NCBI GenBank assembly: GCA_964626075.1
Contig: CAZVDD010000015.1
Span: 8,773-72,772 of the forward strand
DNA length: 64,000 bases
DNA from: an uncultured bacterium
GTDB lineage: Bacteria; Hydrothermota; Tepidihabitantia; Tepidihabitantales; Tepidihabitantaceae
Reading direction: 5' to 3'
The position numbers were made by a program, and so were the translations under genes. Below the pieces are notes generated by a model. That model did not search any database. It was given only the letters and a program-made list of their open reading frames with translations, and was not told the DNA's origin. Below, piece after piece: positions 10,898-54,489 of the stretch. Every line of letters begins with the position of its first letter. The stretch's first letter is position 1.

Positions 10898-11455
10898 TTG
10901 AGCACCAGCCGCCTTCTGCTTCATATCTGCTGCGCACCCTGTGCGAGCGAGGTGGTGCGTCGGCTGCAACCGATTTACCAGGTGACCGGTTTTTTCTACA
11001 ACCCGAACATCTTTCCGGAGGAGGAGTTCCGACGGCGTCAAGATGCGGTGCGGCGATTGAGTCTCCTATGGCACATTCCGATTGAGTATGGGCCGTATGA
11101 ATACGGGCGGTTTCGGGAAGCGGTAAAGGGGTTGGAGAATGAGCCGGAAGGTGGAAAGCGGTGCGAGGTCTGTTTTCGATTGCGACTGGAGGAGTGCGGA
11201 AAACGGGCACGGGAAATCGGTTGCGGCGCAATCGCCACGACGCTGACAATAGGGCCAAATAAGCGCGCAGATGTGATTAACCAGATTGGCAGAGATGTTG
11301 CCGCGATGGCGGGGATTGAGTTCATTGAAAGGGACTGGAAAAAACGGGATGGCTTTAAACACAGTGTTGAAATTTCGCGGGAGTTAGGTCTTTATCGGCA
11401 GGTCTACTGCGGCTGCGAATTTTCTATAAAAGAAAAGGCGGGGCGGAACCAATGA
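10898..11455 (+). CDS. queH: epoxyqueuosine reductase QueH (DUF208)
   Basis: LLHICCAPC, FYNPNI, RCEVCFRLRL, LYRQVYCGCEFS. Confidence 0.92.
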   Translation: MSTSRLLLHICCAPCASEVVRRLQPIYQVTGFFYNPNIFPEEEFRRRQDAVRRLSLLWHIPIEYGPYEYGRFREAVKGLENEPEGGKRCEVCFRLRLEECGKRAREIGCGAIATTLTIGPNKRADVINQIGRDVAAMAGIEFIERDWKKRDGFKHSVEISRELGLYRQVYCGCEFSIKEKAGRNQ

Positions 11456-11472
11456 CCGCCCCGCAACTTTTT
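11437..11472. terminator. probable bidirectional intrinsic terminator
   Basis: GCGGGGCGG...CCGCCCCGC stem flanked by A and T runs between convergent genes. Confidence 0.6.
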
Positions 11473-11479
11473 GTAACCT

Positions 11480-13405
11480 TTAGCGGGCGATAACGAACTT
11501 TGTTTCAGCCTGAATTTCCGGCGAGTTCAGGCGGGAGAAGTAAACACCTGGTGGTACGGGTTTGCCCCCACCGTCTTTGCCGTCCCAAATCCAGTTACCC
11601 GAGCCCGAGATGGTGCGCACCAACCGGCCAGTACGGTCGTAGATGTTGACAGTCGCATCGGCGCCAAGATTTGAGAAGAATTGGACCGTTCCGCGGCTGG
11701 GGTTGGGATGACAGATGAGTGCCCGTTGATCGCGATGGGTTCTGGGTTCTTCAACGATTGCGGTTGGGTCCGCAGTGGTGTATTTGATTGCCCGGCCTGG
11801 AGCAATCGGCGCGCTGCCTCGATGATAGTTGTTGTCAAACAGGCACTGGATAGCGATGGTCTGGCTCGGGTCCTGGATACCAACGGTGCTTGATGTGTAC
11901 TGGTTGGCGGTGAGGTACTGGACGACAATTAGGTTGTCGCCGGTCGGAGTCGGGGTCGTTGGGTCGTAGAGGATGAGCTGGAATCGTTCATAAGGAGCAC
12001 CAGAGCCAGGGAAATAGTGTACCGAATCCCATTCGACAATAAAGCGGTGGTTATCGGCGTCGTAAAAGTACCAGACGCCGTTACCAACCGGTGGATAAAG
12101 GTCATCCCAGTTAAGGCAGATGGCACCCGGTAGGTATGTCGTGGGTAACGATGTGTTGTTGTAATAGTTGCTGGTGGTTGAACCCGGTGCGACCCAGCCA
12201 TTGGAGCAGATGGAGATTTGAGTAGAGGTTGAGCCGTAGAACTGCCAAGTAAACGGCAGGTCAATGGTAATCGTCTGGTCATCACTGAGGGATAGTTGAG
12301 TGCCCCGATTGTTGATTTCTATCCAGGAGAAGTTGGGATGCTGGGGATAGAGGGTGTCAATGTCGTCGTAAGCCCAGTAACGGGGCGGATTGCCGTTGTC
12401 CGGTATCGGGTCGGTAGGGCGTAATTCGCCAACCACGATGTTAAAGCGAATAGTGTCGTTGTAGCCGGTACCGTTGATGAAAAGATAAAGGGTTACCGGT
12501 GTTTCAATCGGGATTGAATGGTCCACCTGAATGCCAAATGGGTCGGTTTCGTTGGTTCGGGTTGCGCCAGCAGGAATTGAGCCGTAGGAGCTGATTGAGT
12601 CGCTGATAACGAAGCGGCTGTCAGAAGAGCGTAACTTGACATTGACACTATCTACTCCTTGATTGCCGATGTTGCGCAGACTGACAATTAAACCGCCAGT
12701 TTCACCGGGGTCAAATCGTCCGTTGTTGTTGCCGCCCGGCGGCGAGTCCAGAACGGTTCTGCTGCTGAGCAGGAGGTAGGGACCTTGATTGTTGTTAATT
12801 AAGGAGATGTCATCGGCGGAGACCACCGCCACCGGAGTGCCTCAGCCGCTGTGGGTGTAACTCCAGAGCGCAACTTCAACTCGGGCGATATCACCCGGGT
12901 TGACACCGGGCAAATTAGCGGTAAGTTCATCGGCGATGTTTAATTCGTACCGGTTCCAGTCCGGGTTGGTGATGCGGTAGAGGCTTAAAGTCGGAGTTGG
13001 TGTCCAGGTGGCGTAGGTGGAGTAGTAGTAACGGGTTTCACCCAGGCGGTTGTCGTTGAAATCATAGTAGCACACCTGAAAGCAGGCTGCGGGCCAGCAG
13101 GTCGATGAGCCACCACTTTCAGTAAACTTTGCCCAGAAGGACAGGTTCAGGGCGACACCCGGCACATCAACCTTTTGACTGAGCCTTGTCCAGCCCGGGT
13201 TGTCGTATTGATAAACCCAGGCTTCGTAGTCCGGGTCCGGTTGATATTCGGTGCCGCGCTGTACTTGATGAGTGCCGAGACCGCTATCGGTATAAGTCCA
13301 GCCAATAGACAACTCCTGTTCGAAGTCGCCATTGACCAGAAGTTCCTGGCTTAAACATAAGCCAAGAACAAACGGCACAATCAGCAAACTGGCCTTGAAA
13401 CGCAT
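11480..13405 (-). CDS. putative secreted selenoprotein (641 aa, Sec at codon 188): signal peptide, CBM-like domain, Ig-like domain, FlgD/T9SS-like C-terminal domain
   Basis: ORFs 12842..13492 and 11480..12832 are in frame across a single TGA (12842-12844); SECIS-like hairpin 11 nt downstream; GGGAGG RBS before ATG 13405. Confidence 0.8.
12815..12830 (-). promoter_or_regulatory. bacterial SECIS-like hairpin
   Basis: mRNA reads UGA-GGCACUCCGGU-GGCGG UGGUCU CCGCC; 11-nt spacer and GGUCU apical sequence as in E. coli fdhF. Confidence 0.75.
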
Positions 13406-13494
13406 TGCGAGCCTCCCTTTTACATTTATAAATATTATCGCCGGGGTAAGCCAAAAGTCAAGAGACGATAGCCGAACACAAAATCCCAACACCG

Positions 13495-13523: not shown

Positions 13524-13529
13524 ATTTTG

Positions 13530-14987
13530 ATGGCAGGATGGAATGGACCATTAGAGAGAGTGGACGACACCAAACTTCTAATTCCCAGAAGTTATAAGTC
13601 GGAGATGCGGGTTGATGGTGTGATTTATGCGGATGCGACTTTGATTGAAGACATCAAGGCGGACCAGGCACCAGAACAGGTTGCCAATGTGGCGACCTTG
13701 CCGGGCATTGTTGGTAACTCTCTGGCGATGCCCGATATCCACTGGGGCTACGGTTTTGCGATTGGTGGTGTTGCTGCCTTTGACCTGAATCAGGGCGTGA
13801 TTTCGCCCGGTGGTGTGGGCTATGACATCAACTGCGGTGTGCGCCTCTTGCGCACCCGTCTTGAGCGGAAGGACCTAAAACCGGAACTACTGGAAAAACT
13901 GGTAGAGGCGATTTTCTACAATGTTCCGTCCGGTGTGGGCTCAAAGGGTAAAATCCGGATTTCGCAAAAGACGGTTGCCGAGGTTTTGACTAAAGGGGCA
14001 CGCTGGGCAGTAGAACAGGGTTATGGAACGCCCGAGGATTTGGAGTTTACTGAGGAGCAAGGTGAGATGAAGGGTGCCGACCTTGCCGGTGTGTCTGCCC
14101 GGGCGCTGGAACGGGGGATGCCGCAATTGGGAACGCTGGGCGCGGGCAACCATTTCCTTGAAATTCAGGAGGTGGTGGAAATCTACGACCCAAAGGCGGC
14201 AGCAGAACTGGGCGTTTATCTGGGTCAGATTACGGTGATGATTCATACCGGCTCCCGGGGTTTGGGTTACCAGATTTGTGATGACAATGTTAAGAGTCTG
14301 GTGGCCGCGGCGCGCAAGTACGGGATTCATCTCGTTGACCGGCAACTTGCCTGCGCGCCGATCGACTCACCCGAGGGGAAAAGATATTTTGGGGCAATGG
14401 TTGCGGCGGCGAACTATGCCTGGGCAAATCGCCAGGCAATCACCCATTGGGTACGGGAGGCGTTTTCTCAAGTGCTTGGCATTCCAATTGAGAGGTTGGG
14501 GATGAGTCAGGTTTACGATGTGGCGCACAACATCGCCAAGATTGAGGAACACGAGGTCAACGGTAAAAGGATGAAACTGTGTGTGCACCGGAAGGGGGCA
14601 ACACGAGCATTTCCCCCCGGGCATCCGGCATTACCGGAGAAGTACCGGCATCTTGGTCAGCCGGTTTTAATTCCCGGAGATATGGGGACCAGTTCTTACC
14701 TGCTGCTGGGTACGGAAAAGGCGGCACAGGAGACCTTTGGTTCTGCCTGTCATGGCGCGGGCCGGGTGTGGTCAAGAACCCGGGCGCTGGAGGAGACGAA
14801 AAAGCGCGATGTGGCGGCGGAACTGCGCGCCCAGGGGATTTTGGTTAGGGCCGCAAGCCGGGAGGTTTTGAACGAAGAGGTGCCGGACGCCTATAAAGAT
14901 GTTGACAAAGTGGTTGATGTGTGTCACCGGGCGGGCATCGCCCGTAAGGTGGCGCGGATGAAGCCGTTAGGTGTGGTCAAGGGCTAA
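13530..14987 (+). CDS. rtcB: RNA-splicing ligase RtcB
   Basis: MPDIHWGYGF, GYDINCGVR, GNHFLE, HRKGATR, HGAGR, YKDVD. Confidence 0.96.
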   Translation: MAGWNGPLERVDDTKLLIPRSYKSEMRVDGVIYADATLIEDIKADQAPEQVANVATLPGIVGNSLAMPDIHWGYGFAIGGVAAFDLNQGVISPGGVGYDINCGVRLLRTRLERKDLKPELLEKLVEAIFYNVPSGVGSKGKIRISQKTVAEVLTKGARWAVEQGYGTPEDLEFTEEQGEMKGADLAGVSARALERGMPQLGTLGAGNHFLEIQEVVEIYDPKAAAELGVYLGQITVMIHTGSRGLGYQICDDNVKSLVAAARKYGIHLVDRQLACAPIDSPEGKRYFGAMVAAANYAWANRQAITHWVREAFSQVLGIPIERLGMSQVYDVAHNIAKIEEHEVNGKRMKLCVHRKGATRAFPPGHPALPEKYRHLGQPVLIPGDMGTSSYLLLGTEKAAQETFGSACHGAGRVWSRTRALEETKKRDVAAELRAQGILVRAASREVLNEEVPDAYKDVDKVVDVCHRAGIARKVARMKPLGVVKG

Positions 14988-29821: not shown

Positions 29822-32800
29822 TTACCTTTTGACAATCAGTTTCTGAGTTTGTCTACCGTCCGGTGAAGTTATCCGCAAAAGATAAACACCGTTTGCTACC
29901 TGGCGGGCGTCCCAGTTGAGTTTTATCTCACCGGGTTCCATAACCTGGTTAAGAAGCGTGGCAACCGACCGGCCGCTGATGTCAAAAACTTCTGCCTGAA
30001 CCCTGCCGCTTCGGTTGAGGTTGTAGCGGATGGCGACCGAATGGGAGAAGGGGTTGGGCTGACAAACAACACCCGGGAGATTTCTGCCCCGGGCGGTACC
30101 TTCCTCTTCTGCAATGCCGACATTGTTGTCAAACCAGCTCTGGGCACTGTCGGCATTCGCCTCGAAGTTCGCTTCAGAAGAGCCGCCCACCATGGCGAAA
30201 GCCACCCGATAACTGCTTCCGGGGTTCAGGTCAAATGGACCGACTGAAACACCAACCGACCAGTCATAAGCGCGGTTAGAGTTGCGCTGATTGATTGTGC
30301 CATTGAGGATGCGTAACTTCATCCCTTCGGTCATCGCTGAGTCGGGATAGACATAACGGGCGTGGTCGATAGCACACAGATTGGCGAAAGATTGCGGGGC
30401 AAGAATTTTTACCCCGACACAAGGGTTGGCACTTGATGAGGAGCGCATAAAGGAGAACCGTTTAGTTTCGTTCGAGGTTACGGTATTAGAGGCGGCATTG
30501 GAACCAACATCAAAGTCGGCGATTATTCCGGCGTAGAGCCCGTTCACAGCGCTTGAACCCTGATTCTGAATGTCGTAGACCAGAACGACGAAGTCGTCAT
30601 AACCACCGGCCGCGTTCATATAGGAGTTCTGGGTAACCCGGATGTTTTTGGGAGTGGGGTGTCCCGCGTCACTGATTACCGCCCGGAACTGCTCGTCTCC
30701 TGTCTGCGGCGGAATCACCGGACGCAGGGAGTCTACAATTCGGAAGTCGGTGTTGTAACTGGATGCGGGCTGGCCATAAAAACGGTCAACAATGTAACTG
30801 GTGCTGTTGCCGAGAAGGAAACTGGCGTAGTAAAGGCTGGAGGAAGAACTCTTGGGATAGGAGAAGCCCGCGCCCAAATCAAGAGAGGGTGGTTCGGTAA
30901 AACCGATTGAGCCCAGGGCGGTGACCGAAAGTCGGCAGTAGCCGGTGTCATGGTCGAGCCAGACAGCACCCGGTTGGATTGGCGTGCCCACGGTGAGGGT
31001 GAAGGTTTGGTCCCAGGTGCCTTCGTTGCTGGTGATGTGGAGGGTGAAAGAGATTTGGGTGCCAGGTGGAGTTGAGGCACTGGCGCTCAGCCGATAGCGG
31101 TCGCCGCGCGCCGTGTCGCCCGAATTGAGATTGCCGTAGGCGCTGGTTGAGTCTAATCGGGTGATGTAAGTGGAGGCGGTGCGGAGTGTACCGTTGACAT
31201 TGGTTGCACCGGCATTGCCGAGATTTTTTAAGGTTACATAGAGGTCGGCAGTTTCTCCGGGGTCCAGCTGGTGATTGGCGCCGTCGTCAACATAGGTGCT
31301 TTGGATTGCGATGTAGGGTTGAGGAGCACCAGGCACAACGACAACCGTTTTCTCAACCGGCAGAAACTGCTTGCGGGTAACGGTCAAATACATTGTGCCC
31401 GGGGTGATGGGGTTGATAGTAATGCGGGCAACACCGGTGCCGTCGGTGCGGCCAACTTCGTGCAGTTCGCCTGATTTGTAGAGACATACCAAAGCGCCGA
31501 TAACCGGGTTACCACCGCTGGTTACGGTTACTTGGAAAGTCTGGGCACCGGTAGGGGTGGTGTCTTGATTTTGAACCGTCATCGTTGCGGGAACGCCGTT
31601 CCACATAGGCAGCGCCGGGTCACCAAACAGGTTCAACTCATAGTAACACCACCTCCAGAGCGGTTGACTCTGTGCCATATAGCCGTAAACCCCTTTGCTC
31701 GAGCAGTGGTTGCGGCCGATTTCCACCGTGTCGCCAATGAAGTAGTAATCGTAAAACATACAGTCCAGTTTTTCTGAAGGACCCATTTGCGGCGGTGTGC
31801 CCCAGCCGTAGCGGGAGTTCATAATGGTTGCGACTGCGCCGCCGTTCGGGTTGTTCACCAGTTCTTCGGCCAGACAGTCCGACGCTTCAAAGTTGCCGGA
31901 GATGCAGGCGATTGAGTTCAATATCACCGGACGGGTGGAGTTCGTCTGGTTGCGGGCAACGGTGGTGGTGTAGATGGGTGTGCCCGATTGGGTGTAGAAG
32001 CCATAGTCATCGCCATGTGCAGCAACATGACAGAAGTGAAAGCCGGTGTTGATAGAATCCCGCATCGGGGTGGTGGTTGTCGGATCTGCGATGTAACGGT
32101 CAACCCAGCCCGAGGGCGTTTTGGCGGCGATGGTATCGGACACGATTCGACCCGAGTAGCCGGTCCAGAGTAAAACATAGGGGAGGAGCATCTTTTGCAG
32201 GTAGTCGGTGGTCGGGGTTTTTTCATAGTAAAGCGTTTTATTGACAAAGGCACCGACTTGAGTGGCATTGTCAACTGAAGCCCGACCGATGAAAAGGTCG
32301 TAGAACAGATCCACCGTATCACCGTCGACTTCACCGAAGATGTTGTTGCGGTTGCCGTCCCAGGACCACTGCAGGTCTGCGTAGTAAACATCAGCCGGGA
32401 TGTAGTCGGCCGTGCCCTCAACATTAACATAACCGCGGCGGGCAGGAACAATTGAGTTGTCGCCGGCCAAGAGAACATAGATTAACCCGTGGTTCTGCCA
32501 GTAGTCGATGATAAAATTACGGATTCTTTCCTGCAGGTCTCTGCCCGGATAAACACTACTGATGGAGTCGGTTTTGAAAATGCGGGTGTAGTAGCCCTTT
32601 TTGGTACGCCATTGGGCAAAGGTCTGGAAATTTGATGCAAGGGTGGAGCTGGTGATGATAGCATAGTCGCAGTCCATATTGTCGCGCAACCTTTGCGGCG
32701 GGGCGAACTGCCGGATCGCTTCGGGATTGACAACAACACTTGCCACTGCGGGACCAAAATGTTCCAGCTGCTTTTCGGTTAAGGTCGGTGGTGTTATCGC

Positions 32801-52482: not shown

Positions 52483-54489
52483 CTAATTCATCAGCACAAA
52501 CTTTTTCGTCAGCCTTTTGCCACCGGCGGTAAGGCGAATTAAGTAAATGCCGGCAGGAACCCGGTTGCCATAATCATCAATTCGGTGCCATTCAAGCCGA
52601 TAGCGACCAGCGGTCTGTGTGCCGTTAACCAGTGTTTTCACCTTTCTGCCGGTCGGCGTAAAGATTTCGAGCCGGACATTTTCGGTCCGGGGCAGGGCAT
52701 AGTTGAGGGCGAGCCATTTATTAGGAGTTGAGTGGAGGAAGAGTTCGTGCCGGCTGAATTCGGGTTTTCTGTTCGGTCCGGACTGAAGACCGACCATCAC
52801 ACTGTGCTGGTCAAGAATCCATTCGTTCGGGTCAAACTCTAAGGCGCTGGGCTGCGCTGGTACGGTGAACACATTGCGCTGCGGGTTTTCGGTTACCGGA
52901 TAGCGGATAATTGTGTCACCACCGGTATAGGTGATTTTTACCTCAACCGGGATGTGGAAGGTAGGCGGAGCGCCATTGATATTGTCCTGGGCAAGGTCAA
53001 CAATCACCTGCCATCCGTCTTGCGTTTCTTGTGCCCACCAGCCAATCTGGTAGTTGGGATAGCCGAGGCTGTAAACCCATTCGTCAAAGAACCAGTTCAA
53101 ATCCAGGCCGGTCACCCGTTCGAAAATTCGGCGGTAGTCTTCGGTGTTGGCGTTACCGTAGCGGAAACTGTCGCCGTAGGCGCGCAGGGCACGGAAGAAT
53201 ATGCCGGGCGCGTTCCAGACCGTGTCGCCGACCACATAGCGGAGCATATGCTGGACCCAGGCGGCTTTGCAGTAGGAGTGGCCCCAGTCAAATTCGTGAC
53301 CCGAGGGTGGGTTGTAAATCGGGTGCGGGTCATTTGCCTCTTCAGTAAAGTAGTCCTGCGCCCGGTTTTGAATCAGGCTTTGGAAAGCGGCAAGTCCCTG
53401 TTGATGCCAGGTGTAGAGTTCGTCCGAGTAGGTGGCAAACCCTTCATTGAGCCAGATGTTGCGCCAGTCAAGACAGGTTACCATATCACCCCACCAGTGA
53501 TGGGAAAGTTCGTGAGCAAGACCATTGTCGTTGCCCCGCTGGATCCAGTAGCGGTGGACCATCGTCAGGGTTTGATTTTCCATCCCGCCCCATTGAAATG
53601 GATACGCGACAACATGGCCATACTTTTCGGTGGCAAAGGGGTAGGGCCCATAGCGTAAGGAGTCGGAGAAGAATCCAATCATATCTGGGACATTGCGAAA
53701 GGCGGTGACCGCAAGGCTGGAGTCTTCGGGCCAGACGAAGTTCTGGATATAGAGCGACTCGTTAGGCGCTGGATAAAACCACTGTTTGAAGTTTGCCCAT
53801 TTTGAGGCGGCAAAGGTTACGAGGTAGGTGCTGATTGGATAGCGGTGGGTCCACCAGCAGGTTTTTTTGCCGCCGGCAACAGTGACGCTGTCGAGAACGC
53901 CGTTGGCACAACCCGAGAACGAGTCCGGTGTGGTGATGTTGACTCGACAACCCCGTTCCGCTTTGTCCCAGGGTTCGTCAAAACAGGGAAACCAGTAGCG
54001 GGCATCAGAGGGTTCGGTTGTTGAGTAGCAGATGGCATGGGGAATACCCTGTGTTCCCCGGCTGTAGTAAAAGAAGCCACGGTTTTGAATCGTAGCGTTG
54101 CGGTGGTAGAAGATGTCAACGGCAAGCGATTCACCATTGGCAAATTCCCGGTCAAGGTCGATGAGGAGGCGGCCGCTATTTTGCGTAAAGGTGCAGGTGT
54201 TATTTTCCCGGCGCACCGAGTCGCAGATGAGGTTGACCATATGGAGACTGAATGTGTCAAAGTTGTTATGGCGGGCGATAAGTTCCACCCGGGTGTGGCC
54301 GCTCATCGCCCTTGAGTTCATCGGCAGGTCAATGTCAATTGTGTAGTGACGGACATCAAAGTGGTGGGTCGATTCGGCAAATGTGTAAATCGGTGGCTCG
54401 AAAGGCAGAAATTTGCCTTCGGTCAATGGCTGGGCAATGCTAATGCCCGCCATCAGAACTACAATTACGAGTAATGTTGAGTTTTTCAT
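52483..54489 (-). CDS. secreted M1 family aminopeptidase with FlgD/T9SS-like C-terminal domain
   Basis: ARYWFPCFDEP, GGMEN, HELSH...WLNEGFATY, AGIYLIRL...KKFV. Confidence 0.92.
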   Translation of the reverse strand: MKNSTLLVIVVLMAGISIAQPLTEGKFLPFEPPIYTFAESTHHFDVRHYTIDIDLPMNSRAMSGHTRVELIARHNNFDTFSLHMVNLICDSVRRENNTCTFTQNSGRLLIDLDREFANGESLAVDIFYHRNATIQNRGFFYYSRGTQGIPHAICYSTTEPSDARYWFPCFDEPWDKAERGCRVNITTPDSFSGCANGVLDSVTVAGGKKTCWWTHRYPISTYLVTFAASKWANFKQWFYPAPNESLYIQNFVWPEDSSLAVTAFRNVPDMIGFFSDSLRYGPYPFATEKYGHVVAYPFQWGGMENQTLTMVHRYWIQRGNDNGLAHELSHHWWGDMVTCLDWRNIWLNEGFATYSDELYTWHQQGLAAFQSLIQNRAQDYFTEEANDPHPIYNPPSGHEFDWGHSYCKAAWVQHMLRYVVGDTVWNAPGIFFRALRAYGDSFRYGNANTEDYRRIFERVTGLDLNWFFDEWVYSLGYPNYQIGWWAQETQDGWQVIVDLAQDNINGAPPTFHIPVEVKITYTGGDTIIRYPVTENPQRNVFTVPAQPSALEFDPNEWILDQHSVMVGLQSGPNRKPEFSRHELFLHSTPNKWLALNYALPRTENVRLEIFTPTGRKVKTLVNGTQTAGRYRLEWHRIDDYGNRVPAGIYLIRLTAGGKRLTKKFVLMN

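Follow-up and report, generated by a model that had tools for sequence, protein, structure and literature searches.

A split gene of an uncultured hot-spring bacterium almost certainly encodes a single cell-surface selenoprotein of an uncatalogued family

Does the in-frame TGA that splits a gene of an uncultured bacterium end one protein, or does it specify an amino acid within a larger one? The gene lies on the minus strand of a 64,000-nucleotide stretch of contig CAZVDD010000015.1 (assembly GCA_964626075.1; 1.8 Mb in 23 contigs, this one being C15), which we call the window and whose positions we use throughout. Its frame extends from ATG 13405-13403 to TAA 11482-11480 and is interrupted once, by the TGA at 12844-12842 (codon 188); the read-through product, ...ALWSYTHSG-U-GTPVAVVSADDISL..., has 641 residues, which is how an initial annotation of the locus had joined the two halves. 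Comparison with related sequences indicates that the apparent stop almost certainly encodes selenocysteine (Sec), and that gene callers have cut in two what is one 641-residue cell-surface protein. The reading as one selenoprotein gene is in our view very probable.

The TGA is shared by relatives of the gene. With the joined protein as query, 41 related genomes gave 26 listed matches that span residue 188, 25 with an in-frame TGA and one without. In 32 extracted homologs, whose N-terminal domains are 31-95% identical, TGA occupies the same alignment column in every case, and TAA or TAG in none; reading frame and amino-acid conservation likewise continue across the codon in all 32. This set comprises orthologs of ~640-730 residues, short forms of ~300 residues in which the domain is joined to a sorting tail, a form of 1669 residues, and sister subfamilies, and includes copies from metagenome-assembled genomes titled Latescibacterota, Eiseniibacteriota, and Desulfuromonadaceae. 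Using the N-terminal domain as query yielded 101 matches in 36 of the 41 genomes, of which 89 have one in-frame TGA and 11 have no stop; four of the latter reach the Sec column (one, L051, was inspected) and seven end before it. G017 and G027, the two related genomes in which no selA match was obtained, have no copy of the domain either, although the sample of relatives is small. The expectation that some homologs would carry cysteine in place of the TGA was borne out as well: P0009, P0052, and P0055 have Cys at the Sec position, and P0063 and P0078 have one in the same loop.

A chance nonsense mutation in a gene for cargo of the type IX secretion system (T9SS), or an error of sequencing or assembly, might also produce such a frame, and this genome does contain one decayed relative. 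The last of the 101 domain matches (L059:1483-2007; G000:C4:225558-226064) is interrupted by TAG and TAA stops and truncated at its end; it belongs to a sister 'N-C-U' subfamily, of which the same-genus genomes G001, G002, and G003 keep an intact 663-residue copy with one TGA. Decay or error does not account for a TGA that recurs at one column in every aligned homolog and once in most domain matches, never replaced by TAA or TAG. In addition, contigs of four sequencing runs from four different studies, one of them possibly the source of this DNA, span 12842-12844 without difference, which excludes an assembly error. Given that orthologs have their TGAs at the same codon, a pseudogene or assembly error is refuted in practice, and its probability is negligible.

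What could instruct the ribosome to read this UGA? The initial annotation had pointed to the hairpin GGCGG-UGGUCU-CCGCC, 11 nt behind the UGA, as a selenocysteine insertion sequence (SECIS), and the element is located where it was described: an 11-nt spacer (12841-12831) is followed by GGCGG (12830-12826), the loop UGGUCU (12825-12820), and CCGCC (12819-12815). The form found in 29 of the 32 homologs is a 6-bp stem with a GGUC tetraloop, and 191 of the 192 cells that make up these pairs across the alignment are indeed paired. Three of the six pairs have undergone two-sided, compensatory changes (G-C and A-U in a 16:16 split, A-U to G-C in two homologs, and G-C to C-G in one). The resulting covariation score was reached by none of 500 shuffles, and every slid register performed worse. 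Synonymous sites within the stem are frozen, with GCG, GTC, and a third-position C each present in 32/32 and GCC in 31/32 homologs, the single exception being a compensatory partner. Outside the stem, codons vary (GAT in 19 and GAC in 13 homologs for Asp; four different codons for Ser), and GCG accounts for 27% of the Ala codons of the gene as a whole. Among the homologs, the spacer measures 11, 14, or 17 nt and so changes in steps of whole codons; the hairpin energies range from -7.3 to -9.7 kcal/mol, with -8.6 kcal/mol for the hairpin of the window. Judged by these comparisons, the hairpin is under selection at the RNA level.

The element also resembles bacterial SECIS (bSECIS) structures. 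The criteria quoted in a 2026 survey (PMC13188914) specify a loop of 3-9 nt with a G in its first two positions, a stem of 4-16 bp, a distance of 16-37 nt between UGA and loop, and a minimum free energy (MFE) of at most -7.5 kcal/mol; with its stem of 5 bp, 6-nt loop UGGUCU, spacing of 16 nt, and energy of -8.6 kcal/mol, the window's hairpin falls within these limits. A scan of the genome for further sites of this kind (TGA, 8-23 nt, and a 5-bp stem with an NGGUCN loop, flanked on either side by an open frame of 50 codons) returned a single site, the TGA at 12844-12842 itself. Rfam holds no matching family for 12740-12900, where chance-level matches alone were obtained (E 1.7 to 8.7).

In public records, the two halves of such proteins are stored separately, the downstream one, for example, as a 450-residue 'T9SS type A sorting domain-containing protein'. 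This annotation takes the TGA as a true stop between two genes, one for a secreted fragment of 187 residues and one for a protein of 450 residues that restarts at GTG 12832 with the help of a GAGG. Both signals, which had been put forward as a caveat, exist in the window: GAGG occupies 12843-12840, 7 nt before the GTG. The restart is, however, not conserved. Ten of the 32 homologs retain the GTG at codon +4, and 18 lack any in-frame start codon (ATG, GTG, or TTG) up to 16 codons from the TGA. The products would also be odd ones, given that the downstream half bears a sorting domain and yet, by its sequence, no signal peptide, and that the upstream half would miss the last strand of a confidently modeled β-sandwich. 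Two genes would further leave unexplained why the frame and its amino-acid conservation continue across the TGA and why the hairpin is conserved with frozen synonymous sites. We therefore regard two genes as very improbable and return to one gene with a recoded UGA.

The genome is equipped for such recoding. All four components that were to be expected, tRNA-Sec(UCA), selA, selB, and selD, were found: the tRNA scores 74.2 bits, above its cut-off, and has the anticodon tca (UCA) according to ARAGORN, and selA (556.9 bits), selB (385 bits), and two selD genes exceed their curated cut-offs. They sit on other contigs, and no sel gene is present within the 64-kb window, as had been noted before. 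One selD gene, which has its own in-frame TGA (...CAG-U-ASK...), directly adjoins selB (G000:C1:68923-71756); the second, without a stop, is located at C5 45233-46150 beside Omp28-like T9SS genes (C5:46775-49285). The genome also encodes a second candidate secreted selenoprotein, an Omp28-like gene (G000:C21:40670-41245) with an in-frame TGA in ...EEAYSEG-U-GSC... and the hairpin CCAGC-GGUCG-GCUGG, which has a GGUC-type loop, 16 nt after the TGA.

Several observations speak against Sec at this codon. Some full-length homologs (P0012, P0051, P0080, P0110, P0125, and L051) do without Sec or Cys in this loop, so that the fold does not depend on the residue. The 16-nt hairpin in its A-U form has, by itself, an energy of -7.3 kcal/mol, slightly short of the -7.5 kcal/mol criterion. 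The window's own hairpin has a U.U apposition where 29 of the 32 homologs have A-U; it constitutes the lone unpaired cell of the 192, and three of the four runs have A at this position, as the relatives do. Position 12825, at the edge of the SECIS loop, is thus a strain polymorphism, with T on the coding strand of the window (Val193) and A, which encodes Glu and restores the A-U pair, in the contigs of three runs. A longer segment of 71 nt folds unremarkably (z = -1.42, with an equally good fold in 14 of 200 shuffles), and its MFE structure lacks the GGCGG-UGGUCU-CCGCC hairpin and contains a competing structure instead. For this reason, thermodynamics is not counted as evidence here, and it is conservation that exceeds chance. 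Part of the covariation could reflect coupling at the protein level, given that E/K and S/F residues covary with the stem. Finally, one database protein, P0152 (656 residues), has Trp at the Sec column.

This Trp is what would be expected if the UGA were recoded, though not as Sec, and inserted Trp, Cys, or Gly by way of a near-cognate tRNA or a code in which TGA is a sense codon. P0152 is derived from Logan and is ~62% identical to the 641-residue query over residues 20-260. It is a close relative of the G026 ortholog and, by eye, nearly identical to L046 where these two were compared; since L046 carries TGA at this codon, the Trp of P0152 may come from a gene call under code 4 (TGA = Trp). 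TGA is an ordinary stop codon in the genome of the window, where it ends 314 of 878 stop-to-stop frames of at least 300 codons, and selA and selB are free of internal stops. Together with a complete Sec system and a hairpin whose spacing and GGUC loop are those of a SECIS bound by SelB, this makes recoding to another amino acid highly unlikely. We propose instead that UGA-188 is decoded as selenocysteine by the SelB and tRNA-Sec of the organism, and that an intragenic SECIS would serve as the signal, its GC-rich stem beginning after a spacer of 11 nt and bearing (A)GGUC(U) at the apex.

Which kind of protein would carry this Sec? The N-terminus looks like a typical signal peptide by eye, and the mature protein probably begins at Q20 or E21; the signal-peptide Cys is unlikely to belong to a lipobox because it is not conserved in orthologs. 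An AlphaFold2 model of residues 21-205 (pLDDT 94.1, pTM 0.90) predicts a β-sandwich, the last strand of which (residues 192-204) follows the loop with the Sec. Foldseek matches this model to modules of the carbohydrate-binding module (CBM) families CBM61, CBM16, and CBM11, to CBM4-derived modules, and to lectin-like domains of phage tailspikes, with TMq of 0.42-0.59 and identities of 11-17%. The proposal that a stop would truncate a CBM-like fold thus holds at the level of the modeled fold, with one strand after the Sec. It does not extend to sequence families: residues 1-205 match no Pfam family at E <= 1, including CBM4/9 (PF02018), and no NCBIfam model, and the best hit of a profile search against PDB sequences is a tail of a GH31 protein (E 0.025). 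The motifs NGDFE and DDISL lie before and after the TGA, respectively, as had been described. The start with NGDFE and the end with ADDISL may resemble those of CBM4/9-type domains.

Downstream of the sandwich, the protein continues with two β-rich domains and ends with a sorting domain, whose T9SS type A assignment (Table 1) agrees with the secretion-type C-terminal domain expected in this half; a further model, PF18962, remains below its cut-off (20.1 versus 27). The full-length AlphaFold model is of moderate confidence (pLDDT 72.4, pTM 0.41) and was used for domain limits alone. Genes for the T9SS machinery are present in the genome, including PorU (422.5 bits; two copies at or above cut-off) and SprA (463 bits summed). 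Accordingly placed signals at both ends suggest a route in which the signal peptide would take the protein across the inner membrane and the T9SS would then deliver it to the cell surface via the C-terminal sorting domain. Two additional T9SS-type open reading frames on C15, of 1191 and 683 residues, match at 30986-31321 and 52522-52680 of the window; they are similar to the Ig-like or sorting-domain parts of the 641-residue protein and have no internal stop.

The protein belongs to a large family of selenoproteins, so far uncatalogued, from uncultivated bacteria of hot springs (WOR-3). A full HMMER search over 1.84 billion representatives recovered 160 proteins (clusters at 50% identity) at E <= 0.001. 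Of the best 150 among these, 110 terminate at the Sec column or beside it, 24 extend beyond it, and 16 are fragments. The last residue of the 110 truncated representatives is Cys in 76 and Gly in 23; the family is therefore mostly of the C-U type, and the subgroup of the window is G-U. Other subgroups have CxxU, U-x3-C, or C-U-x-G-H-C. Among 100 aligned members, a vicinal Cys is present in 69, just one of which also has Cys at the Cys103 column; of the 31 members without a vicinal Cys, 15 have Cys103 and seven another Cys within five residues. Cys103 is nearly invariant within the G-U subgroup. In the window, Cys103 is located in STCWPAACFQVC, along with Cys108 and Cys112, and these three had been offered as possible partners of Sec188. 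That Cys103 and a Sec-adjacent Cys are nearly mutually exclusive across the family argues, indirectly, for a pairing of Sec188 with Cys103.

Since the Sec almost always has a Cys close to it, either in sequence or, through covariation, elsewhere in the fold, we favor a selenol/thiol center over a requirement of the fold itself. In the model, the loop that leads into the last β-strand of the N-terminal sandwich contains the Sec, and there the selenol and a nearby Cys, Cys103 in this subgroup and the vicinal Cys of the C-U dipeptide in most of the family, might constitute an exposed redox-active or thiophilic ligand-binding center. Such a center could form a selenylsulfide, or it could bind a soft metal or sulfur species. 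A redox or thiophilic-binding role of the selenol/thiol pair at the cell surface is a tentative assignment, to which we give somewhat less than an even chance. Against it stand 11 of the 100 aligned members, Sec forms that have no candidate partner Cys at all.

Alternatively, the Sec might be structural, with a selenylsulfide to Cys103 that staples the last loop of the sandwich and resists reduction in a hot, sulfidic, and anoxic habitat, without any reactive or binding center. Selenylsulfides are more stable to reduction than disulfides. The distribution of Cys103 described above is compatible with a staple, as is P0078, which has both a loop Cys and a Cys in a DCW motif, when set beside its relative P0051, which has neither. 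The habitat would suit as well: the 14 listed runs with the largest share of sampled words of the stretch (at least 27%) are all labeled hot springs metagenome. However, 69 of 100 members have the partner immediately beside the Sec (C-U), and a bond of this type staples nothing; in addition, the 11 members without a partner and the several homologs without Cys or Sec in the loop do not fit. A purely structural Sec is thus unlikely, and an exposed selenol/thiol center remains the reading that we prefer.

The genomic context of relatives provides a lead to its function. In all four genomes examined from one related family (G028, G035, G038, and G040), a member of the family immediately follows an Omp28-like, T9SS-tailed gene that encodes a U-x-x-C motif, and in two of the four this pair is close to selA-selB: it follows selA-selB in G038 and is a few kb away in G040. 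The segment L078:98-8674 (G038:C37) contains, on one strand, selA, selB, an Omp28-like T9SS selenoprotein (UxxC), a 642-residue C-U member of the family, a short family member of 216 residues, a second Omp28-like open reading frame with two TGAs, and a ResA/TlpA-like oxidoreductase. This run looks like a cluster of secreted selenoproteins beside the Sec machinery, and the selenol center of the family might be serviced by the Omp28-like UxxC selenoproteins that are encoded beside it in some relatives. Two facts count against this connection. The Omp28-like neighbors score 29-43 bits against an NCBIfam cut-off of 200, and the arrangement was seen in one related family alone and not at the locus of the window. 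Given the kinship of the four genomes and scores that stay well under the cut-off, we treat the neighborhood as a lead and not as proof.

Going further, WOR-3 and allied phyla of the FCB group could export a large family of lectin-fold proteins that present a selenol beside a thiol (C-U, CxxU, UxxxC, or U plus Cys103) at the cell surface, and that form, together with the co-encoded Omp28-like UxxC selenoproteins and a TlpA-like reductase, an extracellular selenium-based system for redox reactions or for the capture of chalcogens or metals. This is speculative, and we consider it possible but doubtful. To our knowledge, bacterial selenoproteins have not been described in such a role. If the reading as selenoproteins is correct, public annotation has halved a large protein family, and Sec in a T9SS-exported, lectin-like β-sandwich would widen the chemistry and the location that are expected of bacterial selenoproteins.

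The features of the gene are collected in Table 1. The terminator-like hairpin is missing from the output of a terminator scan, whose loop limit is 8 nt, compared to a loop of 9 nt here. Two open reading frames on the plus strand flank the gene: by eye from their translations, the one at 10898-11455 looks like a QueH-type epoxyqueuosine reductase (CCAPC motif) and the one at 13527-14987 like an RtcB RNA ligase. Neither has an evident link to the selenoprotein.

Table 1. Sequence features of the proposed selenoprotein gene, in window positions.
Feature	Position	Strand	Basis
Promoter-like TTGACT-16 nt-GATAAT	13434..13461	-	Consensus match alone (10/12 positions)
Shine-Dalgarno-like GGGAGG	13412..13417	-	6 nt before ATG; read from sequence
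Start codon and signal peptide, residues 1-20, MRFKASLLIVPFVLGLCLSQ	13346..13405	-	By eye
N-terminal CBM-like β-sandwich with the putative Sec, residues 21-205	12791..13345	-	AlphaFold2 and Foldseek
UGA codon 188, proposed to be read as selenocysteine	12842..12844	-	Same column in 32/32 aligned homologs; unchanged in contigs of 4 runs
Putative SECIS: 11-nt spacer (12841-12831) and hairpin (12830-12815)	12815..12841	-	Conservation and covariation
Ig-like (CARDB-like) β domain, residues ~208-328	12422..12784	-	Strands 211-325 in model; common to C25 peptidase paralogs of the genome
β-rich middle domain, residues ~340-545	11771..12388	-	Weak NIDO-like match PF06119 (E 0.022, below cut-off); also in C25 paralogs
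T9SS type A C-terminal sorting domain, residues 567-639	11489..11707	-	TIGR04183, 29.6 bits (cut-off 23); PF13860, 28.4 (cut-off 27)
True stop codon TAA	11480..11482	-	Read from sequence
Terminator-like hairpin GCGGGGCGG-(9 nt)-CCGCCCCGC, then CUUUUCUUUU	11428..11464	-	Read from sequence

How does this family relate to what is known? Table 1 of the survey cited above (PMC13188914) covers 119 prokaryotic selenoprotein families and subfamilies; it has no entry for a T9SS cargo or a CBM-like protein, and none of its listed domain models matched the 641-residue protein in Pfam and NCBIfam scans. The available parts of the deep-Sep (PMC12013277) and BSepDB (PMC13326102) papers do not mention the family, although the survey supplements and the BSepDB site may list it, and a targeted literature search returned nothing relevant on selenoproteins that are T9SS-exported, of the CBM type, or from WOR-3, the WOR-3 passage that was read being on glycine reductase. 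The initial annotation had considered Sec in an exported protein without an evident redox fold unusual. Most characterized selenoproteins have a thioredoxin-like fold, according to the survey. However, exported bacterial selenoproteins have already been catalogued, among them a TonB-dependent receptor, the Omp28-related family, and UshA-like proteins (PMC13188914), and export as such is therefore not the novelty.

Several known groups share individual traits with the family. With the Cys-Sec (CU) selenoproteins, such as the MerB-like SaoL, HgcA, KCU-star, and MbdU (PMC13188914, Table 1), it shares the Cys before the UGA in 76 of 110 representatives, and its members are, like SaoL, stored in databases cut at the CU site; selenoproteins with a CU dipeptide are also treated in a preprint (Haft and Gwadz, 10.1101/2022.07.06.499078). 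In contrast to these proteins, the family has a β-sandwich of the lectin type, a predicted location at the cell surface, and no sequence relationship to them, and the member of the window is G-U-G. The Omp28-related selenoprotein (NF045500; 'hypothetical protein GOS_C', UxxC) is likewise T9SS-tailed, exported, and found in the same lineages, whereas its motif and domain differ and its HMM does not match the 641-residue protein. The N-terminal domain shares its fold with CBM61 (2xom), CBM16 (2zey/3oeb), CBM11 (1v0a), and CBM4-derived (3jxs) structures and with tailspikes (8iq9, 5w6h), with Foldseek E-values of 8e-9 to 2e-6 and, for the CBM structures, TMq of 0.45-0.50. Unlike these CBMs, the domain has no Pfam CBM match at E <= 1 and no identified sugar-binding residues, and it would contain Sec.

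The remainder of the protein has counterparts in gingipain-like C25 peptidases that this genome also encodes as T9SS cargo. Over residues 208-641, it shares 40-49% identity with the C-terminal portion of seven paralogs, six with open frames of 1030-1247 residues and one of 862 residues, none of which contains a TGA. One paralog that was examined consists of Propeptide_C25, Peptidase_C25, CARDB, and FlgD_ig domains; compared to these proteins, the Sec-containing β-sandwich stands in place of the propeptide and peptidase domains.

For the recoding signal, the best comparison is fdhF of Escherichia coli, the gene for formate dehydrogenase H, whose UGA is decoded by SelB, tRNA-Sec, SelA, and SelD. 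On the K-12 record (NC_000913.3), codon 140 of fdhF is UGA and is followed by the 11-nt spacer CACGGCCCAUC and GGUUGC-AGGUCU-GCACC, which confirms the element as the initial annotation had given it. The two systems have in common the in-frame UGA, the spacer of 11 nt, a short stem with A-GGUC-U at its tip (in 29 of the 32 family members), and a full Sec system. In contrast to fdhF, the gene described here encodes an unrelated, exported protein with no sign of a Mo/W cofactor, the stem of the family is a perfect, GC-rich helix of 5-6 bp where the fold of fdhF shows an unpaired U, and the window has U instead of A at the edge of its loop. What is new, then, is the family itself, its fold, and a C-U or G-U site on a T9SS cargo protein. 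Given that its SECIS has the spacer length and loop of fdhF, expression and tests of the family in E. coli may prove unusually straightforward.

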